From Nostoc sp. PCC 7120 = FACHB-418 (lineage in GTDB: Bacteria > Cyanobacteriota > Cyanobacteriia > Cyanobacteriales > Nostocaceae): DNA of 32,000 nt. The position numbers and the translations under genes were made by a program. The stretch is from NCBI RefSeq assembly GCF_000009705.1, contig NC_003272.1, positions 4,830,001 to 4,862,000 of the forward strand, given 5' to 3'. Positions 13,675 through 32,000 of the stretch are shown one piece after another (the first letter of the stretch is position 1; every line of letters starts with the position of its first letter). Under the pieces are notes generated by a model. It saw only the letters and a list, made by a program, of their open reading frames with translations, made no database searches and was not told the DNA's origin.

Positions 13675-13777
13675 TATGGAATTTTTATTGCATTGTCCGA
13701 GATATTTCTAGCAAATATCGGCCTTATGTGTCTTGATAAGTAGGATAAAATTTGCTAGTGTAGGGAGCCATTTTTGA

Positions 13778-14062: not shown

Positions 14063-14340
14063 GTGGGATCACGTAATTCTTAACAAAGAGCGGCTAGTTC
14101 AGCTTTAAAAAAGTTCTAAGCAAATATTGCATAGTCTTCTTTAGTTGCAGACGGCAAATGTTGTAGTGCAGCAATTATGGTTGCTGGCATTCACTCCAAC
14201 TAAACTTACGCTGCGACTGAACTGAGGCATACGCTCATATAATAACTGATCATGATAATTTTCAAAGTGAGAGATTTTACAATATCTCGCAAATAAAATT
14301 AGCAAGTCTTATATGTTTGATTAACAGCAAACAAGCAGCG

Positions 14341-14450
14341 GAAAACCTCGTTTGTAAGGATGCAGTGGTGTAAGGGTTTCAAACATTTATACCTCTACAT
14401 CCCTATACCCTTCTCCAAACCCTTGATCTTGCGTTTTCACGCGTAAGTCC
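14341..14450 (-). mobile_element. MITE-like dispersed repeat, copy 1 (left end possibly degenerate)
   Basis: The reverse complement matches the element at 30037-30169, including an identical 27-mer (14401-14427 vs 30060-30086). It ends in GCGTAAGTCC, which corresponds to the GGACTTACGC terminus of copy 2. Confidence 0.7.
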
Positions 14451-14454
14451 TAAC

Positions 14455-15468: not shown

Positions 15469-15555
15469 ACAATTACCTATTGATTTACCATACACAGCAC
15501 TCTTTATTGCAAATTGCGTTGGCGTTAGCCTTGCCGCAGGCTATTGCGAATTGAT

Positions 15556-17001
15556 TTACTGCTGTGCTTCCACAGGACGTTGATCTGGAACAAATTCAGC
15601 CGGAGTCGTTTCTACGCCTGGTTGGGTGTCAATACCTGGAACGGGAAGCTCTAGGTTGGGGCCTTGACGAATAATCCGACTACCAAAGAATAAGGCACAA
15701 ATAAACAGGGCTGTATAAATTCCTGCAAAAATTAGCAAGGATGTTAAAACCTCAGTCGCCGGTAGGTGGGAAACGCCATCTGCTGTGCGAATTTTCCCAT
15801 AAACTACCCAAGGTTGTCGCCCAACACAGCGCACAATCCAGCCTGATTCCACGGCAATGTAGCCCAATGGAGCCGCTAAAATCCAAATTCGCAGTAGCCA
15901 TTTTTGCTGGGCGATCGCTTCTGGTGAAAGTTTACCCCGCAACCATTGAATCACACTGATACCCATCAAGCCAGCCAAGAAAAAGCCGATACCACTCATG
16001 ATGCGGAAGGAATAATAAATCAAACCCACCATCCGGGGGCGATCTTCAGGTTTCCACTCTTTCAGTCCCAGAACGGGTTTAGACAGATTTTTTTTGAATT
16101 CCAAAATGTAGCCTAAGCCGTTGGGAATTGAGATTTCCCAGTCATTTTGCTCAGTCTGATTATTGGGTAATGCAACTACACTCCAGGGCGCAGGTTCTCC
16201 GGCTGGAGAGGTTTCCCACTTGGCTTCCATTGCTGCTAGTTTGGTAGGCTGATAGTCAGCTACCTGTTCAGCGCTGAGGTGTCCGACATAGATTTGTAAT
16301 GGGGTGACAGCGATCGCTGTTGCTAGGGCAATTTTGAGCGATCGCGCAAAGAAAGCTTGATGGCGGTTGTTGAGAATATACCAGGCGCTAATTCCCCCAA
16401 TCACAAACAAAGAAGTTTCCAGCGTCCCTAAAAACATATGGGAGACACTGTTGACCATGAAGGGGTTTAAAATTGCCTGAAAGTAATCATCAACAACAAA
16501 TTTCCCGTTCACTATTTCCCCGCCGGCTGGGGTCTGCAACCAAGAGTTTGCCGCTAAAATCCAGAAGGTAGATAGGTTTGCACCAAAGGCAACCATAATC
16601 GTGGCAAAATAGTGAATCACTGGGTTTACTCTTTCCCAGCCAAACAGCATAATACCCAGAAATCCGGCTTCTAGCATGAATGCCATCGAAGCCTCAAAGC
16701 CTAAAATGCTGCCAAAAAAGTCGCCTACTGCTTCGGAAAACGGGGCCCAGTTCGTACCAAATTGAAACTCCATTGGTAAGCCAGATGCTACACCAATCCC
16801 GAAATTCAACACATATAGCTTGGCCCAGAAACGAGCATGGTGGTAGTAATCAGGATTGCGTGTTTTTAGCCACATTCCTTCGACAATGACCAGATAAATT
16901 CCCATCCCCGTGGTGAGAACAGGCCATAGCATATGAAAAATCGCCGTCAGTGCAAACTGCATCCGCGATAGAGCAACGGTGTCCGATATAAAATCCATCA
17001 A
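15556..17001 (-). CDS. cydA: Cytochrome bd quinol oxidase subunit I
   Basis: LSRMQFALTAIFHMLWP N-terminus, GRQPWVVYG motif, 481 aa. Confidence 0.95.
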   Translation of the reverse strand: MMDFISDTVALSRMQFALTAIFHMLWPVLTTGMGIYLVIVEGMWLKTRNPDYYHHARFWAKLYVLNFGIGVASGLPMEFQFGTNWAPFSEAVGDFFGSILGFEASMAFMLEAGFLGIMLFGWERVNPVIHYFATIMVAFGANLSTFWILAANSWLQTPAGGEIVNGKFVVDDYFQAILNPFMVNSVSHMFLGTLETSLFVIGGISAWYILNNRHQAFFARSLKIALATAIAVTPLQIYVGHLSAEQVADYQPTKLAAMEAKWETSPAGEPAPWSVVALPNNQTEQNDWEISIPNGLGYILEFKKNLSKPVLGLKEWKPEDRPRMVGLIYYSFRIMSGIGFFLAGLMGISVIQWLRGKLSPEAIAQQKWLLRIWILAAPLGYIAVESGWIVRCVGRQPWVVYGKIRTADGVSHLPATEVLTSLLIFAGIYTALFICALFFGSRIIRQGPNLELPVPGIDTQPGVETTPAEFVPDQRPVEAQQ

Positions 17002-17177
17002 CTAACCTCTGAATTTGTTTAAATCTTGACTGGCGTAGCATCTTGGGGTCATAGTCGCATGGTAACGGAACATTTCTCAGTAAACCGAAAAGTTTTTCCC
17101 AAAGAGCGATCGCTAATTTACTGTATTAAAAGGATTAGGTGAGTATTTGAGTTATTTTTGACAATAATTAGACAATA

Positions 17178-18368
17178 TCAAGAACTAACTCCATATTCCT
17201 GCGTAATCAAAAAGACACTCAATAAACTTACTGCTGCACTCATTATAAATATAAAACTGTAACCCATTGTAGTTGCCAACATTCCACTCAAAACTGTGGC
17301 AGCAATCCCACCTAAAAACATCACAGAAACTTGCATTGTGTAATCAGTAGCGGCTGTATTTTTTTCGCATTTATCCATCATGGCACTGAGTAAAGCAGTA
17401 TATGCCATACTTTGGGTTGCATTAACTATAATACAAACTGTATAAAGTACAAGCAAACTACTCACACCAATTGCCGGAATAATATATAAAAGTGTGGTCA
17501 GGTCTGCTATGAAGCCAAATATAATTAGAGACTTTATTCTTCCTAATTTGACAATTACTAATCCCGCAATCAAGGCGCTAACAATACGGGCGCTATAGCT
17601 AACTATTCCTAAAATCCAACCAATATCTGGTAAAGACAAACCCCTATCTACCAAGAGTGGGCGAATCATCAGACTTGTTACACTATCACCCATCATATAT
17701 AGCAGTACAACAAAAAGCCAAGGTAATGCTTTTGGACGTGATAAAAAGCTGATAAATGGTTGAAAGTATGATCGAAAAAAGGTTGAATTTTCTAGTTGAT
17801 GCTGACTTTTTTCTCTATAAATTAATATGGGAACTAAATTTATCAGCATAAATATCGACAGAGTAATTAAACTATATCGCCAGCCAATTTTATCTAAGAG
17901 AATGAGCATTACACCACCACCAATAATTGCGCCGAAAATATTGCCTCCAGATTGAATTGCATTACCTAATCCCCGTTCTTGAGGTTCGAGTAAATTGACT
18001 GCCAACGCATCAGTAGCAATATCTTGACTGGATGAAAATAAAGATGCTAAAAACATACAAGTTAGGAAGGCGTTTAAGTTATCTTGAATGTCAATAAAAG
18101 CCGTTACTAACATGGTTGAAATCAACAATAACTGAAAGCAAATAATCCAACCGCGATAATGCCCTAGTTTGCCTAAACGGTAGCGGTCAATGAATGGAGA
18201 CCAAAGAAATTTTAATCCTGATGGTAGAATTAATAAACCTAGAAATCCAATCACATCCAGGGACATTTTTTGTTGTCGCATGAAAACGGGTAATGCTTGA
18301 ATAAAGAATGTCGTCGGGATAAACTGAGAAATATAAAGTGTGGCGAGTAAAATCAATTTAGGAAGCAT
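17178..18368 (-). CDS. schE: MFS transporter (AmpG-like fold); likely orthologue of the schizokinen exporter SchE described in Anabaena PCC 7120
   Basis: 396 aa, about 12 TM segments, 66 nt downstream of the TonB-dependent transporter gene. The SchE name rests on remembered synteny (iacT-schE-cydAB). Confidence 0.65.
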   Translation of the reverse strand: MLPKLILLATLYISQFIPTTFFIQALPVFMRQQKMSLDVIGFLGLLILPSGLKFLWSPFIDRYRLGKLGHYRGWIICFQLLLISTMLVTAFIDIQDNLNAFLTCMFLASLFSSSQDIATDALAVNLLEPQERGLGNAIQSGGNIFGAIIGGGVMLILLDKIGWRYSLITLSIFMLINLVPILIYREKSQHQLENSTFFRSYFQPFISFLSRPKALPWLFVVLLYMMGDSVTSLMIRPLLVDRGLSLPDIGWILGIVSYSARIVSALIAGLVIVKLGRIKSLIIFGFIADLTTLLYIIPAIGVSSLLVLYTVCIIVNATQSMAYTALLSAMMDKCEKNTAATDYTMQVSVMFLGGIAATVLSGMLATTMGYSFIFIMSAAVSLLSVFLITQEYGVSS

Positions 18369-18434
18369 AGTAGCACTTGGGAAAGGGCAAAATGGCGACA
18401 GAGATAATGTTTGCTATCGCCTCCAAAATCAAGA

Positions 18435-20972
18435 TTAAAAACTCGCACTTACTCGCACACCATAAGTTACTGGGTCGCCAAATCCCGCAGTTACATTAGG
18501 TGGTGGGAATAGGAAACCAGAGGTGATATAACGAGTATCAAACAAGTTATTTGCATATAAATAAATGCCATATTTTTCACCTTCATAACCAATCCGGGCA
18601 TTTACTAGGGCATAGGGGTCTTGCTTCACCTGGTTAGCATCATCAAAGTAAGTTATTCCATAACCGCGTAATTCTGCACGGGCAAAAATACCACCAGGAC
18701 TGCGATATTGAACGGCTAAATTGTAGGTTAATTCCGGTGCGAAAGGAACGCGGTTGTTGCTAAAGTCTCGATTTGTGAAAGAATTTCTATAGTTTTTAAA
18801 TTTGCTGTCCACGTAGCCAATACCAGCAATTAAATCTAGTCCTTGTAAAGGATTGGCTTTGAGTTCAAATTCTAAACCTGTAACTTTGACGTTTGCATTG
18901 GTAACGTTTCTAAAAAAGCCAAAATCATCGGTCAGCAGCACTTGGTAGTTATCAACATCGCTTTGAAAAATAGATAGGTTTGCACTCAGACGGTCATCTA
19001 ACCAAGAAGATTTTAAACCTGCTTCGTAAGTCCAGGTGGTTTCTTCTTGAAATCGGCGTGTATCTTCTGTATCTGCACGGTAGTTAAATCCACTTGGTCT
19101 GTAGCCTTTCGCTATTGTGGCGTAAGCCATTAAATTGGGATTGAAGCGATACTGTAAGCCAAAGCGGGGGATAAATGCGTCACTATTAAGGGTAGCATTG
19201 CGTACTTCTGCGGTGGGTGGATTGGCTGTACCATCAGGATTGACAAAAACACGGCGACGGTCGAGTTCAGCGTCAGCAGTTTCATAGCGCCAACCTGCAA
19301 ACAAAGTTAGTGGTGCAATTGGTTTGTAGTCAATCTGTCCGAATATGGCGTAGGTGTGGCGATTTTGTTCTGCGGAAACGCGATCGCTCCCTGACGCTGG
19401 TAAGCCAAAGAATACTGCACCAGCATCACTATATTTAAAGGTGTCATCTAGAACATTAAAATTCCGTGACTCGTAATATCCACCAAGTAACCACCGCAAA
19501 CGATCGGCACTTTCAGGGGACTGGAGGCGAAATTCCTGTGACCACAAGGTTGAATTGATACCGATAATTTGCTGTAGCAAATCACCGGGGAAATTGTCGC
19601 CCACCAGGGTATTTTGATTGCTAAATCGCCTGGTGGTAATGGATGTAGCCCGAAATCCATCGCCGTTGTAGCTAATTTTTAGCGCTTGGGTATTAGTGCT
19701 GAGACGATGGAAACCGTCAACTTCTTGGGAAACTTGAAAAGGGTTTTCTGCGTTTTGTCGAGAAAAGGTAGGATTGCCGTTATCGTTGTCACTAGCATAA
19801 GCGTTAAACGATATATTCCATTCTGGTGTGGGTGTCCAGAGAATTTGGGCGCGTCCTGTGAGTTGCGATCGCTCTCCTATTGGCTTATTCAGAAAGGTAT
19901 TGTCAAATACGCCATCTCGTGCATTGTATGCGCCTGCTAGTCGAAATGCCAGTTTATCAGGAATAATTGCATCGCTGAGGGATAATTGCAATTCCCGGTT
20001 GTTATAGCTACCATAAAGAGCGCTAATTCGCATCTCTGGCTGATTACTTGGCGGGCGAGAAATCACATTCACCACCCCAGCCGGACTACTTCTACCATAG
20101 AGGGTGCTTTGGGGGCCTCGCAAAACTTCTACCCGTTCTAAATCAATCAAACCAACATCTAAAAAGCCGCCATAATCGAAGGGAACATCATCAATGTAAA
20201 AGCCAACGGTGTCTTGATTGGCTAAAAAGTTAAAGTTATTTAACCCCCGCACACTGTAGTAACTAAAATCAGCACTCCCCGCAGTCGTGGGGAGAAAACT
20301 AAAGTTGGGTGTATTGTTGGCGATATCTTGGAAAGAACGAATTTGAGCGTCTTCGATTTCTTGCTGAGGAATTACCGTCAAGCTAAGAGGGACATCCTGC
20401 GCGTCTTCGGGGCGTTTTTGGGCGGTTACTATCAATTCAATGTCTGGGGAAGTAGGAGTAAGGGCGATCGTTAAACCATTAGATTGATTTACTACCTGGA
20501 TTGGTGGTAGCTTCCCTGAAGATGCGATGGTTACACGTACTGTGTTGTTAGATTCTTGCTGTGTTACCGTCACATAAGAAATACCATCAACTGGTGTGTC
20601 TTCCCGAAATTCCTTTCCTTCTGGTAAAGCTAGTACTGCATTGGGGATATCTGCAATAAATATATTGCCTTCTTGAAGAGTTTCTGGTGCAGATATTTCT
20701 CCATCTGGAGTTTCCAGAATTATCTCAAAATTATCGTCTGTACGATTGATTCGCACACCAGTAATCTTGATTTTTGGAGGGGTTGGCGCTGACTGTGATA
20801 GCCAATCTTTAACACTTGTTGGTGGACGCTCAATATCACTCAGTCGAGGAATATTTGTAATTAATCCAATGTTCTTTGTGTTTACCGGCTTCTCTTGTGC
20901 ATTTGCTTTCTGAGTTATCAACAAGCAAATCGTACTTGCTATACCTATATAGATACACTGATTTAGTTTCAA
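18435..20972 (-). CDS. iacT: TonB-dependent outer-membrane transporter with an N-terminal AMIN-like domain; likely the IacT (iron and copper transporter) orthologue
   Basis: Plug motifs (RVEVLRGPQSTLYGRSSPAGVVNVISR), a long barrel and a C-terminal aromatic residue (..VSASF). An AMIN-like segment (KITGVRINRTDDNFEIILETPDG...) precedes the plug. Start set at the TTG at 20972, giving a plausible signal peptide MKLNQCIYIGIASTICLLITQKANA/QE. The track ORF starts at the TTG at 21020. Confidence 0.85.
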   Translation of the reverse strand: MKLNQCIYIGIASTICLLITQKANAQEKPVNTKNIGLITNIPRLSDIERPPTSVKDWLSQSAPTPPKIKITGVRINRTDDNFEIILETPDGEISAPETLQEGNIFIADIPNAVLALPEGKEFREDTPVDGISYVTVTQQESNNTVRVTIASSGKLPPIQVVNQSNGLTIALTPTSPDIELIVTAQKRPEDAQDVPLSLTVIPQQEIEDAQIRSFQDIANNTPNFSFLPTTAGSADFSYYSVRGLNNFNFLANQDTVGFYIDDVPFDYGGFLDVGLIDLERVEVLRGPQSTLYGRSSPAGVVNVISRPPSNQPEMRISALYGSYNNRELQLSLSDAIIPDKLAFRLAGAYNARDGVFDNTFLNKPIGERSQLTGRAQILWTPTPEWNISFNAYASDNDNGNPTFSRQNAENPFQVSQEVDGFHRLSTNTQALKISYNGDGFRATSITTRRFSNQNTLVGDNFPGDLLQQIIGINSTLWSQEFRLQSPESADRLRWLLGGYYESRNFNVLDDTFKYSDAGAVFFGLPASGSDRVSAEQNRHTYAIFGQIDYKPIAPLTLFAGWRYETADAELDRRRVFVNPDGTANPPTAEVRNATLNSDAFIPRFGLQYRFNPNLMAYATIAKGYRPSGFNYRADTEDTRRFQEETTWTYEAGLKSSWLDDRLSANLSIFQSDVDNYQVLLTDDFGFFRNVTNANVKVTGLEFELKANPLQGLDLIAGIGYVDSKFKNYRNSFTNRDFSNNRVPFAPELTYNLAVQYRSPGGIFARAELRGYGITYFDDANQVKQDPYALVNARIGYEGEKYGIYLYANNLFDTRYITSGFLFPPPNVTAGFGDPVTYGVRVSASF

Positions 20973-21200
20973 GGCTGCCCCACACTCCACAAAAACCACA
21001 CCACGAGACTGAGAACGCAACTCTTAAGTGTTACATCCATACTTCCAGTGATATTGTTTACTTCATGGAATAGGCTTGTCAAAAGACAATCTGTCAAAGA
21101 ATATCCTCATCTCTATCTGGGACTATAAACACCTTAGTTTCTGCATATCTGGGGATGAGAGCAATTTCTGATAAAGATGAGAGTTGTTGCTGTAAATTTT

Positions 21201-21416: not shown

Positions 21417-21934
21417 AATAACATCTCACTTGATTAGCAGAGCAAAGTAAGTAGATCAGGCACATACCTTACCTACTATTTCTTAACTAGAGAACAACAA
21501 TCTTATTGTCGTATTCTGACTTTATTTCCCATCCTTGTCTGCTTTTCCCAGCACATATATATGCTGCAACATCCCCAATTTGATTTGATTTTAAACGACC
21601 TGTCAAATGACAGACAGTCAAACTGTCTGGCTTGGATTTGTGCGATGGGTTATCTTCTCCTGCGCGAACGCACATACGGTAAACCCAATCTGCCAAGTAT
21701 AAACTTTTAGTATTTGGGGATTAGCTTTGATTCTTAGTACGGCTTTGCATAAAATCATGGCTGGTTGAGGGTGGACATTTAAACGTAAAGGCGCGCAAAG
21801 GTAAGCGCAGAGAAACTTAAGTTATGCGATCGCCCCAGCTTTTGCTGATTCTGGTACACTGGCAATTACTTTACGTTTTAAGTAGCGGCTGAATTTCAGC
21901 ATCATTGCTGTGGTAGTATTTTTTCAATATCAAC

Positions 21935-22055
21935 TCGGTTCTGGTGGGGATCAGCCATCAGAGGTAAGGGGGAAAGTCCGGTGTAAATCCGGCGCTGTCC
22001 CGCAACTGTAATGGGGCTTATGCCTCAAAGTCAGAATGCCCGCCGAAAGTACAAC
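21935..22055 (+). promoter_or_regulatory. Cobalamin (B12) riboswitch aptamer
   Basis: Conserved core GGGAAAGTCCGGTGTAAATCCGGCGCTGTCCCGCAACTGTAA (21969-22011) and B12 box AAGTCAGAATGCCCGCC (about 22028-22044). A possible P1 pairs GGTGG (21943-21947) with CCGCC (22040-22044). Confidence 0.9.
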
Positions 22056-22287
22056 AAATTCTTATCTGCGAGGTACAGATGAATAACGCAATCAATACTC
22101 TCCCCCTTAAAGAGGATCACTATCTCATAGCGTCATATATACGCCACACACTACAAATTTCTATGAGATTGTAGATATTTCCTTACAGATATCAATACTT
22201 ACACAGAAGGTTATAGATACAAACTGGAAAACACAGTTGTATTTTATCTTTCGCTTTGCATATTTACTTTATCCAAGCTAGAGGTAA

Positions 22288-22428
22288 CTTTACGCCTACC
22301 TGCATCAAACGCTTAACAGCGAATGCGCCTAAGCCTCCTCGTTGCCTTAGTTTCTCTTTTAGAGAGAGACGCTACCACGAACCCACAGTGTAAGGGGTAC
22401 GGGAACGCCTAGCGGTAAATGCGTAAGG
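22288..22428 (+). repeat. Dispersed ~110-140 bp repeat with imperfect terminal inverted repeats, copy A, inserted in the riboswitch leader
   Basis: Termini ctttacgcctacc and ggtaaatgcgtaagg are inverted. It shares gcgaatgcgccta, gagacgct and cgaac blocks in the same order with copy B at 26168-26274. Confidence 0.65.
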
Positions 22429-22465
22429 CTAATTCATGCTATCAATCAGCAACGCCTGAAAATCA

Positions 22466-22876
22466 ATGAGCAAAAAACAACATACTTTATTTGTCTGCAC
22501 GACCTGCGCCAGTGTGTGGCAAGATGGCAAGCGAGTTGGCGAAAGTGGTGGACAGCAGCTATTACAACAACTCCAAGCACTTGCACAAACTTGGGAATTG
22601 CAACATAAATTCTCCATTCAGGGAGTTGAATGTATGAGTGCTTGCAACCATGCTTGCGTTATTGCCTTTACGGGAGAAGAGAAGTTAACCTATCTTTTCG
22701 GCAATTTAGCAGTTGATGATAGCGCATCTGCAATACTGCAATGCGCCACTCAATACTACAATAAAGCATCTGGTTTACTACCTTGGTCAGAACGTCCAGA
22801 AGCTTTAAAAAGAGGCATCTTAGCCAAAATTCCACCCCTAAGTAAGTGGGCAAAATTCCATCATAATTGCTGTTAA
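22466..22876 (+). CDS. DUF1636-family predicted metal-binding (Cys-rich, thioredoxin-like) protein
   Basis: 136 aa with Cys motifs FVCTTCAS and ECMSACNHAC, and a C-terminal LPWSERPEALKRGILAKIPPL block that I recall as typical of DUF1636/COG5469 proteins, which occur next to cobalamin genes. Confidence 0.7.
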   Translation: MSKKQHTLFVCTTCASVWQDGKRVGESGGQQLLQQLQALAQTWELQHKFSIQGVECMSACNHACVIAFTGEEKLTYLFGNLAVDDSASAILQCATQYYNKASGLLPWSERPEALKRGILAKIPPLSKWAKFHHNCC

Positions 22877-22990
22877 TTTAACACCAGTAGTCCATCCAGT
22901 TCGTAGTCAGGACTTTAGTCCTCAAAACTCTCAGCACTCAAGTACTGACTACAAACTTAAAAACTAGCTTGTAAATTACACTATCAGTGT

Positions 22991-23009
22991 GATAATAATA
23001 ATCATTATC
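22991..23009. promoter_or_regulatory. Fur box (iron box)
   Basis: GATAATAATAATCATTATC matches the classical 19-bp consensus GATAATGATAATCATTATC at 18 of 19 positions. It lies about 100 nt upstream of the receptor ATG at 23111. Confidence 0.75.
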
Positions 23010-23110
23010 TAAACATAGCAATTTTCCTACTGGCTGAGAGTTTTTTACCGAAAAAGCTCAAATTTCTACTTGAGAAAAATTTTTAGTTATACAGGTGGCT
23101 TCAATTACCA

Positions 23111-25240
23111 ATGCGTACTCAGTTTATTGCCAGATGGGGAACTCAACTTATCGTTTCTAGTTTGACTATCACCGCAGGGATGCTGTGGGAAAATTCCAGC
23201 ATGATAGCCACAGAAGTTCTACAAATATCCGAGTTTCCGCAAGAGGAAGGTTCAGCCAAAGACTTACAACCAGTTACAGAAGTAATATCTCAAGATACGA
23301 CAGAAACCGAACCCGACATTCAACTGACAGTCATTGACAAACTCCTCAATGAACCTGTATTTTCCCCTTTTCGCCGCGAGGGAACAGTAAAAGATTCCAC
23401 CCGTCCGGTGTATGTGATTACTGGCGAAGAAATGGAAGCACAGGGTGCAATAACTGTCAGAGAAGCACTGCGATTTCTTCCTGGTATTTTGGGTGACGGT
23501 ACAGTTGGGACAGAAGTAAACGCCTTAAGTGGTCAATTTATTCGCGGTTCTAATACCGGACAAGTATTAATCTTATTGGATGGCAGACCAATTAATAATT
23601 TAGGTGGTGGTGGTTTCGATTTGTCAGAATTTACCACTAATAATATTGAAAGAGTTGAAGTCTTACCAGGAGGTGGTTCAACACTTTATGGTTCAGATGC
23701 AATAGGCGGGGTAATTAATATTGTTACCCGTCGTCCTACAGAGAAAATCACCACAGAAACCAAAGTTAATTTCGGTTCCTATGGACTTAACCAACAAAGC
23801 ATTCAAAATAGTGGAAAATCAGGTGATATTTCTTGGGTAATTGGTTACAACCGTACCCAAGCACAAAATAATTATCGCTTTACTATTCCTGAAGCTAACT
23901 TTGAGGGAACAAGAAGAAATAATGACGCACTCTTTAATAACTTTAACGTCAAACTAGAGGCAAATTTCGGTTAACGTAACACCTTAACCCTCTCCACCCT
24001 ATATTTAGGTAAAGAACAGGGAGTACCGGGAGGTGTACCTATTCCTGTACCCGAATTTGGACAGGGATTTTTTAACTCTCTGACTGAGAATTATCGCAAA
24101 TACACAGACCAAGTTCTCACTGATTTAACCTGGAACTCTAAATTAGGCAGTGGTGATGATTCTCTATTAACAGCGAGAGTTTACGCTGATTTTCTCAATA
24201 CTCGCTTTGATGACCGTAGCGGTGCAATCACATCTCAAAACCGCTTTGATACTAAACAAGATTCCTACGGGATTCAAACCACACATAGCTGGAACTTTGC
24301 CAAGAATCAGACCTTAGTTTATGGCTTTGATTATCGTCATACAAATGTACGCAACACCACGTTTAATTATGGGACAAATATTACTAGAGAAAATTATGAT
24401 GATGCTATAGGTCAAGGGGCAATTTTTGGAAAGTATGAAATTAACTTTTCTCCTAGTTTGAGTATGAATTTAGGAGTGCGGCAAGATTTTAGTAGTTTGG
24501 TAAATGGCTCATTTACATCACCATCTATAGGGGCAAAATTTGCAGTTTCAGATTCAACTACACTCCGCACTAACTATATAAGAAACTTCCGCGTGCCTAC
24601 TATAGTCAATTTATTTAATAATAATCCTACTAATATTGGTAATCCTGACCTTAAACCAGAGAAGGGGGATAGTTTTGATGTAGGAATTGACCAAAAATTA
24701 GGTAATATTGGCTTGTTGAGGTTGACATTTTTTAGTAACCGTGTCTCTGATACAGTTGCCTTTAAAAGACTCACGCCCCCTGTAAATGGAAATACAGGGA
24801 CTTGGGAAAATATCGGGTTAGTACAAACTACAGGAATTGAAGCTTCTTTAAATTTACAACTGGCGAAAAATATCTATGCTTTTGTGAATTATACGGCGAA
24901 TGATCCGCGTATTTTAGAAAGTGCTAATCCGGCGGAGGTTGATAAGGCGTTAAGGTTTGCAGGTGCGGATAAATTAAATTTGGGTGCGTCTTATGAAAAT
25001 CCTCAAGGTTGGTATTTGGGGGTGTTGATGAACTCCTTAAATGGATATCCCACTAATAATATTAATACGGAGTTTCTTTCGGGGTATACTACTTTTGATT
25101 TAAAGATGCGTGTACCTATTAGTGATAGTTTGGTTTTAACTGGGAGTTTGGATAATCTGTTTGATCAGCGTTATCAGTTGTTTCCTGGTTATCCTGATGG
25201 GGGGAGGGTTTTTCAGGTTGGGTTGAGTTCTCGGTTTTAA
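23111..25240 (+). pseudogene. BtuB-like TonB-dependent receptor interrupted by a single in-frame TAA (codon 288, 23972-23974). The ORF track shows it as two pieces, 23111-23974 and 24458-25240
   Basis: Both track ORFs are in the same frame. My hand translation of 23975-24457 in that frame has no stop and reads like TBDT barrel sequence (RNTLTLSTLYLGKEQGVPGG...). There are plug motifs (IERVEVLPGGGSTLYGSDAIGGVINIVTRRP) and a terminal ..GLSSRF. Confidence 0.8.
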
Positions 25241-25282
25241 AAAGAAGAGTTTTAGTTTTTTTCACGCAAAGGAGAATTAAGA

Positions 25283-26155
25283 ATGGCTGAGTTTAATTGT
25301 TGGGTGACACTTGTTAATGAGGTAGTTAAGGAAGATTTAGCTACGGGGGGGTTTATTGAGTATGAATATTTTGATTGTGGCAGTGATGTTTTAGCATCGT
25401 TAGTTTATACCTTGTTTGAACAGAATTGGCAACAAGTTGGCATTGCTCATATTGTTCAAGGTAGTGTTTTAGAGTTGGAATTTAATGCACCACCAAAGCT
25501 GTGTATTCTCTATGATGGCTATTTGACGGTAGCGGCTGAGGGTTGGCATTTACATTTATGTATTGATACTAATTTTGGTGGCCCTTTGTGTAAAACTCCT
25601 GTGGAAGTGAGGAAGCAACGTTTAGTTTCTCGTGCGGCTTTTTATCGGCGGTTTAATACAGAAGGAAATCCTAGAAGTTGGGGGATTCAGTTTTGGAATG
25701 GTGCGAATGAACAATTAATGACGATTTTGTTACCTAATCCTTTGGTAGATGGAGAAAATTTATTACCAGAGGGTAAACCAAATCTAGATAAGTTAGCTCT
25801 TTATCAAGATTTGCGAGATATTTATGTATTAGGTAAAAAACCCATACCCTTTAGCAAAAATCCTCTCAAACATTCCTATATTTCCGTTTGTACCTCTACA
25901 CGCTGTCTGCCTTCTCGTAAATGGCAACCTACATTTGATGCTTTAAAATCAGCAGTAGAAAACGCAGGTTTAGACATCGAAGTCAGAACATCTGGCTGTT
26001 TAGAAGTGTGTCAACTCGGCCCAGTTGTTTTTTATTCCAATGATAGAACTTGGTACACTCGCGTTAACCCCAACGTTGCCGAAAATATCGTCAACGAACA
26101 TCTAATCAAAGGTAACAAAATCACCGAAAACCTCTACCCACCCCAAACCCTCTAA
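25283..26155 (+). CDS. Two-domain protein: N-terminal ~195 aa of unknown function fused to a C-terminal thioredoxin-like [2Fe-2S] ferredoxin domain
   Basis: AAGGAG lies 8 nt upstream of the ATG. The C-terminal domain (about 25871-26152) has CX4C...CX3C (VCTSTRC ... GCLEVCQLGPVVFY ... WYTRV). There is no signal peptide. Confidence 0.8.
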   Translation: MAEFNCWVTLVNEVVKEDLATGGFIEYEYFDCGSDVLASLVYTLFEQNWQQVGIAHIVQGSVLELEFNAPPKLCILYDGYLTVAAEGWHLHLCIDTNFGGPLCKTPVEVRKQRLVSRAAFYRRFNTEGNPRSWGIQFWNGANEQLMTILLPNPLVDGENLLPEGKPNLDKLALYQDLRDIYVLGKKPIPFSKNPLKHSYISVCTSTRCLPSRKWQPTFDALKSAVENAGLDIEVRTSGCLEVCQLGPVVFYSNDRTWYTRVNPNVAENIVNEHLIKGNKITENLYPPQTL

Positions 26156-26167
26156 TCTCCTTTAAAT

Positions 26168-26274
26168 CTTTGCGTCTACCCTGCGGGAACACCTTACGGC
26201 GAATGCGCCTACTCTTCTCATTCTCCTGTCGGAGACGCTGGCGCGAACGAGAACGACTTCGTCGAATGCGTGAG
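26168..26274 (+). repeat. Dispersed repeat, copy B, between the ferredoxin-fusion gene and the SBP gene
   Basis: ctttgcgtctacc ... gcgaatgcgccta ... ggagacgctggcgcgaacg ... gtcgaatgcgtgag, collinear with copy A at 22288-22428. Confidence 0.65.
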
Positions 26275-26280
26275 ATAAAA

Positions 26281-27483
26281 ATGATAAAACTCCCACACAA
26301 AAAACCAATCATTTTCTTCTGTCAATTATTCCTCATAGCCACCCTCATCATCGCTTGTCATCAGACCACAATTCACACATCAACTAATACCTGCACCCCC
26401 AACTATAACCCCAATCAAGATTACTTTCCCAATAAAATCAAAATCACCCACGCCAGAGGTTTGGCGGTAGAATATCACAAACATTACAAAGTAGTCACTA
26501 TTAAAAACCCTTGGCAAAATGCCAAAACTCAGTTTCAATATGTTTTAGTCCAATGCGGAACTCCCACACCCCAAGGATTTAAGCAGGCGCAAGTAATTAC
26601 AGTTCCCATTCACTCTATAGTTTCTCTATCAACTACACATCTACCCCACCTAGCCAAATTAGGCGTAGTTGATAAACTAATTGGTATTAGTAATAGTAAA
26701 CAAGTCAATACTCCTGATGTAGTTGAGAGAATCAAAGCCGGAAAGATTACACAAGTAGGTAATAATTCTAATGTAGACATAGAAAGGTTATTAGAATTAA
26801 ATCCTGACTTAGTAACAACTTTTGGAACAGGAAATTCCCAAACTGATAGTTATAGCAAACTCACGGAGGCAGGTTTGAAAGTCGGGATAAATGCTGAATA
26901 TATGGAAGATACGCCATTGGGAAGAAGTGAATGGTTGAAATTTACGGCTTTGTTTTTTAATCAAGAAGAAAAAGCAGAAAAGATATTTGCAGAAATTACT
27001 GATAAATATGAACAAGTAGCTCAAAAAGTCAAATCTGTAAAAAACCGTCCAACAGTATTTGTCGGATTTAACTTTAAAGGTACTTGGTTTATGCCTGGTG
27101 GGAATAGTTACGTAGCGAAATATCTTGCTGATGCTGGAGGTGATTATCTCTGGAGTAATGAGCAATCTGCTGGTAGTCTACCGCTTTCTTTTGAAGTTGT
27201 TTTGGAACGTGCGACAAATGCTGACTATTGGTTGAATTTTAGCCAATCTTGGCAGAGTTTAAAAGATTTATTAGCTGAAGATAATCGCTATGCTGATTTT
27301 AAGTCTGTGAAAATAGGCAATCTTTATAATAATAATGCCCGTGTTAATGAAAGTGGAGGTAATGATTACTGGGAAGGTGGAATTAGTAACCCAGATATAG
27401 TTTTATCTGACTTAATTAGAATACTGCATCCAGAGATATTACCGAATCATCAATTATTTTATTACCACAAAATTCTTAAATAA
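26281..27483 (+). CDS. ABC transporter periplasmic substrate-binding lipoprotein, iron-chelate/cobalamin (BtuF/FhuD, Peripla_BP_2) class
   Basis: Start at the ATG at 26281 gives a signal peptide with a lipobox (LIATLIIAC). It has the typical SBP core (IVSLSTTHLPHLAKLGVVDKLIGIS ... LNPDLV). The upstream part of the track ORF translates the repeat element. Confidence 0.8.
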   Translation: MIKLPHKKPIIFFCQLFLIATLIIACHQTTIHTSTNTCTPNYNPNQDYFPNKIKITHARGLAVEYHKHYKVVTIKNPWQNAKTQFQYVLVQCGTPTPQGFKQAQVITVPIHSIVSLSTTHLPHLAKLGVVDKLIGISNSKQVNTPDVVERIKAGKITQVGNNSNVDIERLLELNPDLVTTFGTGNSQTDSYSKLTEAGLKVGINAEYMEDTPLGRSEWLKFTALFFNQEEKAEKIFAEITDKYEQVAQKVKSVKNRPTVFVGFNFKGTWFMPGGNSYVAKYLADAGGDYLWSNEQSAGSLPLSFEVVLERATNADYWLNFSQSWQSLKDLLAEDNRYADFKSVKIGNLYNNNARVNESGGNDYWEGGISNPDIVLSDLIRILHPEILPNHQLFYYHKILK

Positions 27484-28571
27484 TGTTAAGTGAAAAATAT
27501 AAATTTAAAAACTCTTTATTAACCCACAATTCTCAAATTATAAAAAGCCTTATTTTCTCAGTTTTATTAATAGGTTTACTATGTGCCTTTTTATTAGACT
27601 TAGCTTTAGGCTCAGTTGATATCCCTATCAACGAAGTAGTCAATATTTTACTCGGACAAGAACCAGAAAAAGCAACTCATGCTCATATTATTCTCAAATT
27701 TCGCTTACCTAAAGCTTTAACTGCAACTTTAGCAGGTGCAGCTTTAGGTGTGAGTGGCTTACAAATGCAAACCTTATTTAAAAATCCCTTAGCGGGGCCT
27801 TTTGTATTGGGAATTAGTTCTGGTGCAAGTTTAGGTGTGGCGTTAGTTGTGCTGACAGCAAGTGTAACAACACCAACATTATTAACAGATTTGGGAATCA
27901 TTAGTGATTTTGGTTTAGTTATAGCAGCAAGTCTCGGCGCAGCATCAGTTTTAGGGATGATGTTAGTTGTGTCTCGCCGAGTGCAAGACACAATGACGCT
28001 ACTGATTTTAGGTTTATTGTTTGGTTATGCTACTAGTGCAATTGTGAGTATTTTGTTGCAGTTTAGCTCAAAGGAACGCATTCAAAATTATATTATGTGG
28101 ACTTTTGGGAGTTTTGCTGGGGTGACTTGGAAACAGTTAATTGTTTTAATTCCAGTGATAGTTTTAAGTTTATTAGTGGCGGTGTTGCAATCGAAGTCTT
28201 TAAATGCGCTGTTATTGGGAGAAACTTACGCACGTAGTTTAGGCTTAACAGTACAGAAAACTAGATTTTCAATTATTACTAGTGCGTCTATATTAGCAGG
28301 GGCAATTACGGCTTTTTGTGGCCCTATAGCATTTCTAGGTGTGGCTATTCCCCATCTGTGCCGTAGTTTATTTAATACTTCCGACCATAGAATGTTAATC
28401 CCTAGTGTAATAATTATGGGTGCAATCTTAGCATTAATTGCTGATTTGTTTTCTCAACTTTGGGTAAGTCAGATGGTTTTACCTTTGAATGCAATTACTG
28501 CTTTAATTGGTACTCCTGTTGTAACTTGGGTAATTCTGCGGCGTAATTCCCAAAAATCTTTCCCGTCATGA
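27483..28571 (+). CDS. FecCD/BtuC-family ABC transporter permease
   Basis: 362 aa, about 9-10 TM segments, motifs RLPKALTATLAGAALGVSGLQMQ and GPIAFLGVAIPH. The start overlaps the SBP stop (TAATG). Confidence 0.9.
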   Translation: MLSEKYKFKNSLLTHNSQIIKSLIFSVLLIGLLCAFLLDLALGSVDIPINEVVNILLGQEPEKATHAHIILKFRLPKALTATLAGAALGVSGLQMQTLFKNPLAGPFVLGISSGASLGVALVVLTASVTTPTLLTDLGIISDFGLVIAASLGAASVLGMMLVVSRRVQDTMTLLILGLLFGYATSAIVSILLQFSSKERIQNYIMWTFGSFAGVTWKQLIVLIPVIVLSLLVAVLQSKSLNALLLGETYARSLGLTVQKTRFSIITSASILAGAITAFCGPIAFLGVAIPHLCRSLFNTSDHRMLIPSVIIMGAILALIADLFSQLWVSQMVLPLNAITALIGTPVVTWVILRRNSQKSFPS

Positions 28572-29581
28572 GTAATCCAATTTTAACAACTCACAATCTG
28601 ACTATTGGTTATAAAACATCCAGAAAAAATGTTCGGTGTGTTGCATCAGATATTTCGGTATCTCTGCAATCTGGGGAAATGGTTTGCTTACTTGGCCCCA
28701 ATGGTGCGGGTAAGTCTACATTACTGCGATCGCTCGCCGGAATGCAACCCCCAATAGCCGGAGAAGTCCGACTCTTAGGCGAAAACGTCTATCATTTACA
28801 ACCACAGAACTTAGCCAAACGTATGAGTTTGGTACTGACTGAGAAAGTTGATGTAGGAATGCTATCAGCCTACACTTTGGTGAGTTTGGGACGACATCCT
28901 TATACTGACTGGTGGGGGAGGTTAACTCCTGAAGATGAAGCAATAGTACATTGGGCGATAAAATCTGTAGGAGCAGTACACTTAGCACAACGCCAAGTCA
29001 GTGAATTAAGTGATGGTGAACGCCAAAAAATTATGATTGCGCGTGCTTTGGCGCAGTCGCCGATGGTGATGTTATTGGATGAACCGACGGCATTTTTAGA
29101 TTTACCACGGCGGGTGGAAATTATGCAATTGTTGCGTCAATTAGCACGAGAAACTAATCAAGCAATTCTCCTTTCTACCCACGATTTAGATTTAGCTTTG
29201 CGGCTTGCTGATAAAGTTTGGCTATTATCAACTGGTGGAATTTTACAGGTTGGCGCACCTGAAGATTTGGTGTTAAGTGGTGCTTTTGCTGATACTTTCC
29301 GCAGTGAAGGTGTGGAGTTTGATATGTTTTCTGGGGAGTTTCATTTACATACACCAGTCAAGGGAGAAATTAATTTGATAGGTGAAGGTATCGCATCTGT
29401 GTGGACTATTCGTGCTTTAAAACGTGCAGGCTTCCAAGTTAATCAAACTCAAAATAATTTGCCAATCTCAGTAGAAGTGATATCAAATTCTCAACAATTT
29501 TTGTGGAAAATCACAAACAGCCAGACTGTATATATTTATCAATCATTGTCTGAAATGATTAAATTTTTGGATTGTTTATAA
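28568..29581 (+). CDS. ABC transporter ATP-binding protein (FecE/BtuD-like) with an ~80-aa C-terminal extension
   Basis: Walker A GPNGAGKST, signature LSDGERQ, Walker B MVMLLDEP, H-loop STHDL. An ATGA stop/start overlap links it to the permease gene. Confidence 0.9.
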   Translation: MSNPILTTHNLTIGYKTSRKNVRCVASDISVSLQSGEMVCLLGPNGAGKSTLLRSLAGMQPPIAGEVRLLGENVYHLQPQNLAKRMSLVLTEKVDVGMLSAYTLVSLGRHPYTDWWGRLTPEDEAIVHWAIKSVGAVHLAQRQVSELSDGERQKIMIARALAQSPMVMLLDEPTAFLDLPRRVEIMQLLRQLARETNQAILLSTHDLDLALRLADKVWLLSTGGILQVGAPEDLVLSGAFADTFRSEGVEFDMFSGEFHLHTPVKGEINLIGEGIASVWTIRALKRAGFQVNQTQNNLPISVEVISNSQQFLWKITNSQTVYIYQSLSEMIKFLDCL

Positions 29582-30195: not shown

Positions 30196-32000
30196 TTAAT
30201 TAGGACTTTGTTCAGGCATCATGCACTTATCAGAGTCACAACCGGCTGGGCCGACTTCCATTAAATCGCCGAAATCGTAGCGACTTAAGACGGCGTAAAA
30301 ATCATCTGTTTTACGACGTTGTACAACTTCTTTCACCATTTGCTCATACTGTTCTTTTGAGATTGGCTCAAATGGTAAACGGGGGAAGGTTTGGTGGTCA
30401 TCGAATCTGGCGAGGAGTGCTGCACTGATGTAGCCTTCATCATTTTGAATGGCTTGCCAGATTTGTGTGCCTAAGGTTTCCACTTCGTGTTCTCGCACTT
30501 CGATGGTTGCAGATGTGTTGTGGGTGACATAGAATTTCTGCACCTGCATATAGAAATCCATTTGGGCGATCGCATTAAATTTGCTAATGTCGATGGTATC
30601 CGCCCCCGGTATATCAGCCCAAGATACAGCCACGGGGATTTCTACTAACCATTCACTCACCCGTGGATCTAACGGATCGTTCAGCAAATTACCCTGTTCA
30701 TCCTTGTCTGACTGGGAAGGTATGACATTGTAACCGTAGTCAATACAAGCCAAAGCCACCGGGTCATTTTTGCGGAATGTAATCCGACGAATAAACCTTT
30801 GAGCTTTGGGGGGATGCCAACCGGGACTAGCACCAGTTAATAAAGACTTTGTGCCACTAGGTTGGACGGTGGTACAGCGATTTGGACGCTTAATGTTATG
30901 GCGATCGCAATAATCCCACACAACACGCTGCACAATCTCGCGCCAAGAACTGAGGTATTTTTCTTCCTCGCGCTTAAATGCCAATCCTTGGGGCGTTGCT
31001 GGTCGTCCTGCTTCCCACCATTGCAGCCACTCTGCACCAAAAGCATGAACAAAGAAATCAAATAAACCAGTGAAAGAAACACCGACAATGGGGTCTAGTT
31101 CCCGACTATATTGATAACGCGGTTCTGGGAATTTGTGATTTAACAGTGTCGCTACAGACAAAGCCCCAGCAGTGAAGGCCTCCTCTTGTTCTTTGTAATT
31201 AAATGGGTCAATTTGATTTAAGTGGATTTCCGATAAGTTGCAGTGAAAATTGCTACCTATTATTTCTCCGCACGGATTTAAAGCATAACGAGCCAAACGG
31301 TGTTTTAGCTCTTTTTCATCAAAATGAGGGTGTCGTTTTTGCAACCAGTCTTTAGCCGTTCCTTGTTCATAAGCTTTGAGAAACTCTACTTTCAAAGCTT
31401 GTGTTGGTAGTAAATCAATATTGGCTCTAGCTACAGCTTCACCAGCCCATTGAATTGCCCCTTCGCCACTGTAGTATTGTTTACGTACAGCATCAACGCA
31501 CTCTTCTAATGTGGGCTTGCGGTGAAAGACTCTGGTGTGGTTCGCCATCCGCAAAGAATCACGCTCAGGATCAATACGCCATCTGCCATTTTCATCTTGC
31601 TGCCATAGGTTATCTTTGGCAGCTGCCCCTAATTGGTCATCAGAGATGAACTGACGCATTCCGGCACTGTTATGTGTGAGATAGCCGTCGCAGTAGAAGC
31701 AATGAGCTTCATCGACTTCTATATCATAGGTTTGAACATGATCGTAACTGCCTAATCCTTTCACTGTGACAGGAATATCTAAGGAAATATCTGCCTCAGC
31801 AACGTAGCGTTCGTAATTAGCATCTACAGTACGGGAGCCTTGAAATCCCATCTCGCGCATTTCGCTGTAGGTGTAAGTTTCCCGCATGACTGCACCAGGA
31901 ACGGTAAAACCATACATTTTCAGGCCTTGACGTAGTTCACCTTTAGCTGAATGCGGCGAAATCAGGGCATTGTAACGCTCCTTTAGCGCTGGAATTGTCA
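30196..32000 (-). CDS. nrdJ: Adenosylcobalamin-dependent (class II) ribonucleotide reductase, C-terminal part, containing an intein (5' end outside the window)
   Basis: TVQPSGTKSLLTGASPGWHPP and CGEIIG..FHCNLSEI motifs of monomeric-type class II RNR, plus a C-terminal CDSDKC redox pair. The frame is open upstream of the track ATG all the way to position 32000. Confidence 0.9.
   Translation of the reverse strand, partial: TIPALKERYNALISPHSAKGELRQGLKMYGFTVPGAVMRETYTYSEMREMGFQGSRTVDANYERYVAEADISLDIPVTVKGLGSYDHVQTYDIEVDEAHCFYCDGYLTHNSAGMRQFISDDQLGAAAKDNLWQQDENGRWRIDPERDSLRMANHTRVFHRKPTLEECVDAVRKQYYSGEGAIQWAGEAVARANIDLLPTQALKVEFLKAYEQGTAKDWLQKRHPHFDEKELKHRLARYALNPCGEIIGSNFHCNLSEIHLNQIDPFNYKEQEEAFTAGALSVATLLNHKFPEPRYQYSRELDPIVGVSFTGLFDFFVHAFGAEWLQWWEAGRPATPQGLAFKREEEKYLSSWREIVQRVVWDYCDRHNIKRPNRCTTVQPSGTKSLLTGASPGWHPPKAQRFIRRITFRKNDPVALACIDYGYNVIPSQSDKDEQGNLLNDPLDPRVSEWLVEIPVAVSWADIPGADTIDISKFNAIAQMDFYMQVQKFYVTHNTSATIEVREHEVETLGTQIWQAIQNDEGYISAALLARFDDHQTFPRLPFEPISKEQYEQMVKEVVQRRKTDDFYAVLSRYDFGDLMEVGPAGCDSDKCMMPEQSPN
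31669..32000 (-). other. Intein (C-terminal portion) inside nrdJ; splice junction ...THN/S at 31669/31668
   Basis: Intein block F/G signature TYDIEVDEAHCFYCDGYLTHN followed by a +1 Ser. The codons were checked by hand: AAC at 31671-31669 and AGT at 31668-31666. Confidence 0.85.

Follow-up and report, generated by a model that had tools for sequence, protein, structure and literature searches.

In Escherichia coli the btuB and btuFCD genes for the import of cobalamin (vitamin B12) are scattered, and neither ferredoxins nor a HemS-like protein are attached to them. The heme import operons hemRSTUV of Yersinia and phuR with phuSTUV of Pseudomonas encode a receptor, a cytoplasmic tetrapyrrole-binding protein, a binding protein, a permease and an ATPase, and the ATP-binding cassette (ABC) importers for heme are related to BtuCDF. 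To our knowledge, little has been learnt about the handling of cobalamin in bacteria on its way from the inner-membrane importer to the adenosyltransferase. The present analysis deals with a cobalamin import operon, alr4027–alr4033, in a stretch of 32,000 nucleotides of Nostoc sp. PCC 7120 (contig NC_003272.1, positions 4,830,001 to 4,862,000; this whole stretch is called the window and its first letter is position 1), and above all with the product of alr4030, a protein of the family DUF7676. The locus is read here as a cobalamin import operon that answers to two regulatory signals and encodes two accessory proteins of redox type, among them Alr4030 as a receiver or processor of the incoming corrinoid, and the probability of this reading as a whole is put at roughly 60%.

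The flagged locus as such is no discovery, since its B12 importer has already been published. The 13 primers reported for alr4027, btuB2, alr4031-33 and iacT (Graf 2024, Mirus 2009) all match the window exactly and at the expected positions (13/13), which identifies the locus as alr4027–alr4033 of Anabaena/Nostoc PCC 7120 and confirms the assignment given in a first-pass annotation of the same DNA. Graf et al. (2024; Microb Cell 11:41, PMC10878165) identified the riboswitch, gave the order riboswitch, alr4027, btuB2 (alr4028-29), alr4030, btuFCD, and renamed alr4028-29 btuB2 and alr4031-33 btuFCD, so that the statement of the first-pass annotation that this region has only generic transport annotations is outdated. 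Older papers name the operon's genes fecB3/D3/E3. On cobalt starvation the mRNA of alr4027 and btuB2 rose about 100-fold and that of btuC at least 10-fold, and the btuB2 transcript was lost when 5 µM cobalamin was added. Evidence was presented for a single transcript from alr4027 to btuD that begins upstream of the riboswitch, its mapped start falling within iacT, and for a second start upstream of alr4030. Uptake of 57Co-cyanocobalamin was 50-fold lower in a btuB2 mutant, 4-fold lower in btuD and tonB3 mutants and unchanged in a btuF insertion mutant; BtuB2 and TonB3 carry cyanocobalamin through the outer membrane and BtuD contributes to its import through the inner membrane (PMC10878165). 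The cobalt and cobalamin response and the uptake of labelled cyanocobalamin bear out the corrinoid uptake module under a working riboswitch that the first-pass annotation had proposed, and the cobalamin response of the genes downstream of the aptamer, which it had left for later work, is part of the published record. The identity of the locus and its role in B12 import are therefore regarded as virtually certain. The riboswitch, btuB2, btuFCD, their regulation and the uptake phenotypes of this same DNA all stand in that account, which, unlike the present one, includes neither Zur control, nor a leader open reading frame (ORF), nor the fold of the N-terminal domain of Alr4030.

The elements listed in the first-pass annotation were all found, on the plus strand and in the order it gave, and the operon, including its regulatory sites, is laid out as follows.

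21919–22061, plus strand: cobalamin riboswitch aptamer (RF00174, 49.8 bits, E = 1e-9)
22064–22081, plus strand: expression-platform hairpin ATCTGCGAGGTACAGATG, carrying a Shine-Dalgarno sequence (GAGG) and an AUG
22079–22174, plus strand: 31-codon leader ORF (MNNAINTLPLKEDHYLIASYIRHTLQISMRL), started by the platform AUG
22466–22876, plus strand: alr4027, encoding a DUF1636 thioredoxin-like ferredoxin of 136 residues (PF07845, E = 1.4e-45)
22969–22996, plus strand: predicted promoter-like site TTGTAA-16-(TG)GATAAT (consensus scan, 9/12 matches, extended −10)
22990–23010, no strand assigned: Fur-family operator TGATAATAATAATCATTATCT, identical to the published Zur (FurB) sites of alr4028-29
23111–25240, plus strand: btuB2 (alr4028 plus alr4029), TonB-dependent corrinoid receptor of 709 codons, with plug and barrel
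25283–25837, plus strand: N-terminal domain of alr4030, DUF7676 (PF24724), with a HemS/ChuX/HutX-like fold in the domain model
25838–26155, plus strand: C-terminal domain of alr4030, predicted thioredoxin-like [2Fe-2S] ferredoxin (Foldseek, profile, four cysteines)
26266–27483, plus strand: btuF (alr4031), periplasmic binding lipoprotein (Peripla_BP_2, E = 2e-29; lipobox LIIAC)
27483–28571, plus strand: btuC (alr4032), FecCD-type permease (FecCD, E = 3e-78)
28568–29581, plus strand: btuD (alr4033), ABC ATPase (ABC_tran, E = 2e-31)

Alr4027 and Alr4030 are, as the first-pass annotation had stated, accessory proteins without an assigned function. Alr4030 (25283–26155, 290 residues) carries a DUF7676 domain at residues 18–181, scoring 209.9 bits against a cut-off of 27, followed by the ferredoxin-like domain, in which the four cysteines of the motif C203-x4-C208...C239-x3-C243 are invariant in 31 homologues. 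Foldseek matches this C-terminal domain to 1f37/1m2a (E = 2e-6), and its profile matches an Aquifex ferredoxin (E = 5.5e-10) and the N-terminal domain of a hydrogenase B subunit (E = 2.6e-12) among Protein Data Bank (PDB) chains; its score with PF01257, 21.9, lies just below the cut-off of 24.8.

The N-terminal domain was modelled with a mean pLDDT of 89.8 when taken alone with a wider alignment, the value for the full-length model being 86.5. Its 24 best PDB matches come without exception from a single fold group, with E values from 3e-4 to 2.5e-2, the next match having an E value of 0.23. This group comprises HemS, ChuS, PhuS, ChuX, HutX and Ava_4353, and its PDB entries include the HutX-like structural-genomics proteins 2hqv and 2ph0 as well as 3na2 and 3fm2. 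The Foldseek probability is 1.00, with TM scores of 0.45–0.51 when normalised by the query and 0.5–0.6 by single-domain targets, and the full-length model retrieves the same HemS/ChuX-type set of structures. At the sequence level there are only echoes, of PF22684 (LFE_1968-like) in 7 of the 31 members with a best E value of 0.037. Because the structures match and the hidden Markov models (HMMs) of the families do not, DUF7676 is, as judged from the model, of the HemS/ChuX fold class and not a member of those families by sequence.

The Alr4030 family is strongly conserved and dense in cyanobacteria, where one search gave 255 clusters and a genome scan 238 species. When the N-terminal domain was used for an exhaustive search, 171 clusters (50% identity) were obtained, most of them made up of stand-alone proteins of 175–200 residues. 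Across this wider DUF7676 family the motifs DGYLT, WHxHLC, SWG, NG and PNP are conserved, and the residues H89, H91 and C93 of WHxHLC are invariant, which makes the His-x-His-x-Cys set a candidate group of ligands on sequence grounds. No signal peptide was found in the fused or the stand-alone forms of DUF7676, and the proteins are hence expected in the cytoplasm.

The genes around DUF7676 were surveyed in the best 80 loci of a scan of a genome collection, all of which are from Nostocales, and beyond this order by single look-ups and one scan of metagenomes (80 loci). A receptor gene stands directly upstream of DUF7676 in every one of the 73 assessable Nostocales loci (73/73) and a binding-protein gene directly downstream in 69 of 77, while blastn alone detected an upstream riboswitch in 54 of 64. 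The same order of riboswitch, receptor and DUF7676-ferredoxin occurs in Cyanobacterium stanieri, Phormidium willei, Hormoscilla and Floridanema. Furthermore, in Zavarzinia, Methylopila and Nitrospira a stand-alone DUF7676 gene is flanked by the genes for a receptor and a binding protein, with upstream riboswitches of 85–121 bits, and in Nitrospira the DUF7676 unit is followed by a riboswitch and then by CbiA, CbiX and CbiD. In two planctomycete loci a riboswitch is followed by DUF7676 and then by ABC genes, so that DUF7676 operons under a cobalamin riboswitch include those of Alphaproteobacteria, Nitrospira and Planctomycetes. In the planctomycete loci L091 (6080–6928) and L092 (6131–6964) a prepilin-type N_methyl/SBP_bac_10 protein is encoded behind the riboswitch, at the place of the TonB-dependent receptor of other phyla.

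Neighbours in the metagenome loci were classed by clustering the neighbouring ORFs and running Pfam on representatives, spurious overlapping ORFs from high-GC contigs (clusters 4 and 8) being ignored; tblastn with the Anabaena proteins was too insensitive for these loci and found 0 of 59 binding proteins. The recurrent neighbours of DUF7676 are a receptor gene upstream and, on one side or the other, the genes for a binding protein, a permease and an ATPase. All 11 loci in which the region upstream of the receptor is in view have a riboswitch; among the 40 longest loci as a whole, 16 have one. In 8 metagenome loci a gene for a PduO-type cob(I)alamin adenosyltransferase (PF01923, E = 7e-45; TIGR00636 above its cut-off) stands directly upstream of DUF7676. 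In L094, L097, L098, L102, L106, L107, L138 and L162 the adenosyltransferase gene ends 4–80 nt before a stand-alone DUF7676. The linkage of Alr4030-type genes with transport genes, the conservation of which the first-pass annotation had wished to see checked, is thus present in Nostocales, in other phyla and in metagenomes.

Another recurrent neighbour is an unnamed polytopic membrane protein of about 190 residues, encoded directly downstream of DUF7676 in 26 metagenome loci. The cyanobacterial and metagenomic proteins of this kind are homologous (E = 3e-36 and 2e-21), and no sequence match to them was found in Pfam, NCBIfam or the PDB chains, hence none to the solved BtuM; the family is a candidate for an alternative inner-membrane corrinoid transporter. 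Its gene usually follows the receptor gene, at the position of BtuFCD, as in L164 (3716–4345), and it is also seen in L081 (10922–11515) and L083 (9400–9984).

The import systems of Anabaena and E. coli both combine a TonB-dependent receptor under riboswitch control with a binding protein of class III and an ABC importer of type II; in Anabaena, unlike E. coli, the genes form one operon, a zinc input is added, and all four proteins fall below the NCBIfam equivalog cut-offs. For BtuB2 (plug PF07715, E = 2e-26; barrel PF00593, E = 1e-45) the best NCBIfam match is TonB-B12 (TIGR01779/NF007926 test), with 164.5 bits against a cut-off of 599.7, followed by a hemin receptor model with 158.7 bits and a second BtuB equivalog model with 129.3 against 836. 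BtuB2 works as a B12 receptor, yet it is no orthologue-level member of the E. coli BtuB family. BtuF gives weak matches of equal rank to IsdE and BtuF, the latter with 34.8 against a cut-off of 234. The best match of BtuC is BtuC, with 204.7 bits against 334, and that of BtuD is the corrinoid ABC ATPase PRK09536, with 195 bits against 537, the BtuD model itself giving 114.4 against 281. PRK09536 is a haloarchaeal-type corrinoid ATPase. BtuD has 337 residues, and its C-terminus is about 70–90 residues longer than in the ATPases of 261–269 residues found in stand-alone DUF7676 operons. The reading frames of btuF and btuC overlap by 1 nt (TAATG) and those of btuC and btuD by 4 nt (ATGA). The btuF ORF (26170–27483) opens at a TTG at 26170; the start is most likely the ATG at 26266 or that at 26281 instead, with the lipobox LIIAC downstream of it.

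An in-frame TAA at 23972–23974 splits the receptor frame into the two ORFs alr4028 and alr4029. At this position 73 related loci have a sense codon (K 45, S 14, T 6, D 3, Q 2, N 2, R 1), and the stop has been reported as an error in the deposited genome: on resequencing, Mirus 2009 read a T/C difference here and took alr4028 and alr4029 to be a single gene. The reported correction would give CAA (Gln) there, and the relatives mostly have AAA (Lys).

PhuS, HutX and HemS are cytoplasmic receivers or degraders of imported heme (review PMC12670364). The DUF7676 operons have the same gene order as hemRSTUV and phuSTUV, and the product of the second gene is of the same fold class in both; the heme operons are under Fur and iron control, whereas the DUF7676 operons have a cobalamin riboswitch. 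DUF7676 also differs from the proteins of the heme operons in being a single domain of about 180 residues, without a match to the HemS and ChuX HMMs and fused to a ferredoxin in cyanobacteria. It could be argued from this likeness that the true cargo is heme, another metallo-tetrapyrrole or a zinc chelate, with Alr4030 as a heme chaperone and cobalamin as a side substrate. The near-equal scores of the receptor with the B12 and hemin models would agree with this, as would the first-rank match of the binding protein to IsdE, the lack of any protein that reaches an equivalog cut-off, the heme proteins among the fold relatives of Alr4030 and the zinc link suggested by Zur control. Such a cargo is nevertheless considered improbable, given that cobalamin riboswitches stand in front of DUF7676 operons in four phyla, that these operons adjoin genes for corrin biosynthesis (cob) and for PduO adenosyltransferases, and that loss of btuB2 has so large an effect on the uptake of cyanocobalamin.

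Alr4030 is probably the cell-side receiver of imported B12. Positioned at the cytoplasmic exit of BtuCD, it would accept the imported corrinoid, perhaps through the invariant WHxHLC, and DUF7676 would be the B12 counterpart of HemS, taking the corrinoid from the inner-membrane importer and delivering it onward. Since PduO-type genes adjoin DUF7676, an adenosyltransferase is the likely recipient. That DUF7676 binds corrinoids at all is given an even chance. The fused [2Fe-2S] ferredoxin might reduce Co(III), whereby the upper ligand would be stripped or the corrinoid primed for adenosylation, its electrons serving to remove the upper ligand from cyano- or hydroxocobalamin or to reach Co(I). Alr4030 would in that case be a functional counterpart of human MMACHC on a HemS-type scaffold. 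The likeness to MMACHC (CblC), PduS/PduO and BtuM, in which ligation by a cysteine can drive decyanation, is one of proposed role, the processing of incoming cobalamin for adenosylation; MMACHC and BtuM have no kinship of sequence or fold with Alr4030, and the electrons of Alr4030 would come from a [2Fe-2S] cluster, theirs from flavin or thiol. Reductive processing, as put forward in the first-pass annotation, was a reasonable inference and is now better founded, because the N-terminal domain of Alr4030 has the fold of tetrapyrrole chaperones. A reductive role of the two ferredoxin modules is still held only tentatively.

The second of these modules, Alr4027, belongs to DUF1636, with a PF07845 score of 154.9 bits against a cut-off of 31.6. 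A thioredoxin-like [2Fe-2S] ferredoxin was already the prediction for DUF1636 in 2015, and Alr4027 matches the structure 9jn8 of another member, Rhodobacter capsulatus ORF378, described as a 'thioredoxin-like ferredoxin', with an E value of 3e-18; all five of its cysteines (C11, C14, C56, C60 and C64, in CxxC and CxxxCxxxC) align with those of 9jn8. A literature search found no paper on 9jn8 and no function for it. The place of DUF1636 varies from locus to locus. In 17 of 64 Nostocales loci it separates the riboswitch from the receptor gene, and elsewhere in this set it forms a unit of its own, 30–40 nt behind a second riboswitch; in total about 23 of 27 DUF1636 genes at these loci begin 30–470 nt 3' of a riboswitch. 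A paralogue in a cob cluster of Nostoc PCC 7524 is found between hemB and cbiJ near a CobG-like/CbiC fusion and directly 3' of the platform motif, and DUF1636 is the first gene, behind a riboswitch, of the cob operon of Phaeobacter. The variable position, the riboswitch units of its own, the paralogue in a cob cluster and the Phaeobacter operon together suggest that DUF1636 belongs to the B12 regulon as a ferredoxin on which uptake and biosynthesis operons both draw. Alr4027 would feed electrons to corrinoid processing or to corrin biosynthesis, and cob(II) reduction before adenosylation would be a step common to both that DUF1636 could serve.

The same facts can be turned into a different explanation, in which Alr4027, and possibly Alr4030, serve corrin biosynthesis, giving electrons to a CobG-type monooxygenase, for the insertion of cobalt or for the reduction of cob(II), and have no more than the B12 regulon in common with the transporter. 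The paralogue of Nostoc PCC 7524, the head position in the Phaeobacter cob operon and the variable place of DUF1636, which is interposed between riboswitch and receptor at no more than 17 of 64 loci, speak for it. Alr4030 does not follow this pattern, as its linkage is with the receptor (73/73) and the ABC genes and not with cob genes, and this holds in lineages that have no cob genes nearby. A purely biosynthetic role is thus plausible for DUF1636 and not for DUF7676, and as an account of both proteins it is judged unlikely. For Alr4027 it overlaps with the import reading, because a cob(II)-reducing ferredoxin would serve salvage and synthesis alike.

As regards the first regulatory input, the Rfam check called for in the first-pass annotation confirmed the aptamer, the only Rfam match in the whole window, as a full-length match (model positions 1–189) scoring 49.8 bits against a gathering score of 31.5. 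The mean pairwise difference among relatives is 0.16 in the aptamer and 0.40 in the leader downstream of it. Directly 3' of the aptamer, the hairpin ATCTGCGAGGTACAGATG is invariant in 11 of 11 aligned relatives, and at other loci the AUG of this platform motif is the start codon of a receptor, CbiM, BtuF or DUF1636 gene; we infer that the hairpin sequesters the ribosome-binding site. In the Anabaena leader this AUG opens the short ORF at 22079–22174, the frame of which is free of stops in each of the 11 aligned relatives (31 codons long in 10 of them, 32 in one) and at further loci as well; loci without DUF1636 have a different leader ORF of about 29 codons. The three codon positions are about equally affected by substitutions (0.32/0.29/0.31), so that there is no visible selection on the leader peptide. 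The ORF is either a regulatory leader ORF or the remnant of a former gene start, and in the first case its translation might pass the state of the switch on to the long mRNA, in keeping with the large changes in transcript level reported by Graf et al. (2024). A scan of the leader for a terminator-like site 3' of the aptamer found no intrinsic terminator.

From the end of the aptamer to the start of alr4027 there are 405 nt, and the leader as a whole folds well (z = −4.1). A candidate anti-aptamer, a 9-nt complement of the aptamer at 22101–22109, was rejected as it is not conserved in relatives. The leader also contains an insertion of about 115 nt (about 22325–22440) common only to the closest relative (L003), and a 24-nt repeat, AACGCTTAACAGCGAATGCGCCTA, at 22308–22331, which recurs in the spacer between alr4030 and btuF at 26188–26211 and is probably a small dispersed cyanobacterial repeat.

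The second input lies in the spacer between alr4027 and btuB2. The first-pass annotation saw here a near-consensus Fur box, and GATAATAATAATCATTATC (22991–23009) indeed matches the 19-bp Fur consensus of E. coli at 18 of 19 positions, being the only site of the 32-kb window with 3 or fewer mismatches, where 0.01 would be expected by chance. According to Table S3 of PMC10957091 the same 21 bases form three overlapping Zur (FurB) sites assigned to alr4028-4029, with FIMO p values of 3e-7, 8e-5 and 6e-6. In the exoproteome of a zur mutant, as given in that paper, Alr4029 is increased with a log2 fold change of 4.3 and Alr4028 with one of 2.4, and according to its text Zur controls no TonB-dependent receptors of Anabaena other than Alr4028/Alr4029 and Alr3242. 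A review places alr4031 in the Zur regulon. Since the identical bases are published Zur sites, the supposed Fur box is the Zur operator of alr4028-33, and the signal is zinc and not iron. Of the two inputs that the first-pass annotation had seen on one importer, the corrinoid one stands and the second is retained as zinc instead of iron; likewise, the match of the box to the Fur consensus stands and its role in iron sensing does not, Mirus 2009 having found that alr4028 responds to copper limitation and not to iron limitation. A zinc input on the operon is considered highly likely.

An iron-linked import island, combining corrinoid sensing with iron sensing by Fur and importing a corrinoid or another metal chelate, was the alternative closest to the first-pass annotation. 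It draws on the 18/19 match, Fur-family operators looking alike, on the report of alr4028-33 as a target of FurC (PerR), and on the neighbouring all4026 (iacT), which is an iron and copper receptor. The coincidence of the box with the sites listed as Zur sites, the greater abundance of the receptor in the zur mutant in the data cited above and the missing response to iron limitation all oppose it, and no data on FurA binding to the promoter upstream of btuB2 were found in the searched literature. There is accordingly little probability left for this explanation.

The predicted −10 hexamer of the promoter-like site falls within the first Zur site, which is the usual geometry of repression. As the operator overlaps this predicted −10 and lies in the spacer between alr4027 and btuB2, a zinc-controlled internal promoter could drive btuB2–btuD and bypass the riboswitch. 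The distribution of the box among relatives follows the gene order. The palindrome TGATAATNATTATCA, with at most one mismatch, occurs upstream of the receptor in 14 of the 17 Nostocales loci that have DUF1636 between riboswitch and receptor and in 2 of the 49 in which the riboswitch directly precedes the receptor (Fisher p = 9e-10, the loci not being independent; background rate 1.7%). The text of Graf et al. (2024) makes no mention of Zur. The Zur-regulon papers treat the receptor as zinc-related, and their passages on alr4028 do not mention the riboswitch. As far as these passages go, the same operon carries two unconnected published identities, one in cobalamin uptake and one in the zinc regulon.

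The zinc input is also relevant to a more radical proposal on Alr4030. Relatives of its fold class, among them HemS, ChuS and PhuS, degrade heme and free its iron, and by analogy Alr4030 might open the corrin ring or release its cobalt, reductively destroying or de-metallating imported corrinoids. A cyanobacterium that makes its own pseudocobalamin would then mine foreign B12 for cobalt, and Zur control would fit, because cobalt can replace zinc when zinc is scarce. We know of no enzyme that recovers cobalt from corrinoids, and the linkage of DUF7676 with adenosyltransferase genes argues against this proposal, which is thought very improbable.

Several points count against the reading of the locus as an import operon with two inputs and a corrinoid receiver. 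The fold match of the N-terminal domain is moderate (TM 0.45–0.6, identity 10–18%), the closest structure, 3na2, is itself of unknown function, no significant match to the HMMs of HemS (PF05171) or ChuX/HutX was found (HemS in 1 of 31 members, E = 0.14), and a literature search found no paper tying HemS, ChuX or HutX to cobalamin. Because the stand-alone forms have no redox domain, reduction cannot be the core function of DUF7676, and in Roseofilum the DUF7676-ferredoxin gene lies away from any receptor gene or riboswitch. The DUF1636 paralogue in a biosynthesis cluster would fit a biosynthetic role equally well. Not all parts of the operon are essential under the conditions tested, since the btuF mutant imports normally. 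The distance of 405 nt from the aptamer to alr4027, and zinc as a signal for the import of B12, also fit the reading less readily. Finally, the roles given to Alr4030 and Alr4027 derive from fold and neighbourhood.

Further B12-related genes adjoin the operon in Anabaena and in other Nostoc genomes. At 30196–31917, on the minus strand, the window encodes an adenosylcobalamin-dependent ribonucleotide reductase (TIGR02505, 468 bits, the match beginning at residue 83; no Pfam match), so that a B12-dependent enzyme is encoded some 600 bp away from the B12 importer, on the opposite strand. The first 82 residues of this protein, ending in ...CDGYLTHNS, look by their sequence like the C-terminal end of an intein. 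In the loci L002, L006, L012, L015, L032, L042 and L057 a second riboswitch drives a gene for a CbiM-type cobalt transporter; these units are on the minus strand, about 6–7 kb downstream of DUF7676, and point at the B12 importer, so that cobalt and B12 uptake adjoin in many Nostoc genomes. Upstream of the operon, the minus strand of the window (7529–21020) carries opcA, zwf, tal and fbp (7529–13132), cydBA (14455–17001), an RhtX/FptX-like transporter of the major facilitator superfamily (17178–18368) and the AMIN-domain receptor gene iacT (18435–21020).

What is new in the present analysis is the fold of DUF7676 and its linkage across phyla, the leader ORF behind the aptamer, and the joining of the riboswitch and Zur accounts. 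The anatomy of the operon reconciles the latter two, with a riboswitch at its head and a predicted internal promoter guarded by Zur before btuB2, and it raises the question of why zinc scarcity should call for the import of B12. DUF1636 emerges as a probable ferredoxin of the B12 regulon, common to uptake and biosynthesis operons. DUF7676 becomes a concrete candidate for the step between importer and adenosyltransferase, which would give a specific function to a family so far labelled unknown, and if this is true, heme and B12 import would be sister systems down to the cytoplasmic receiver.

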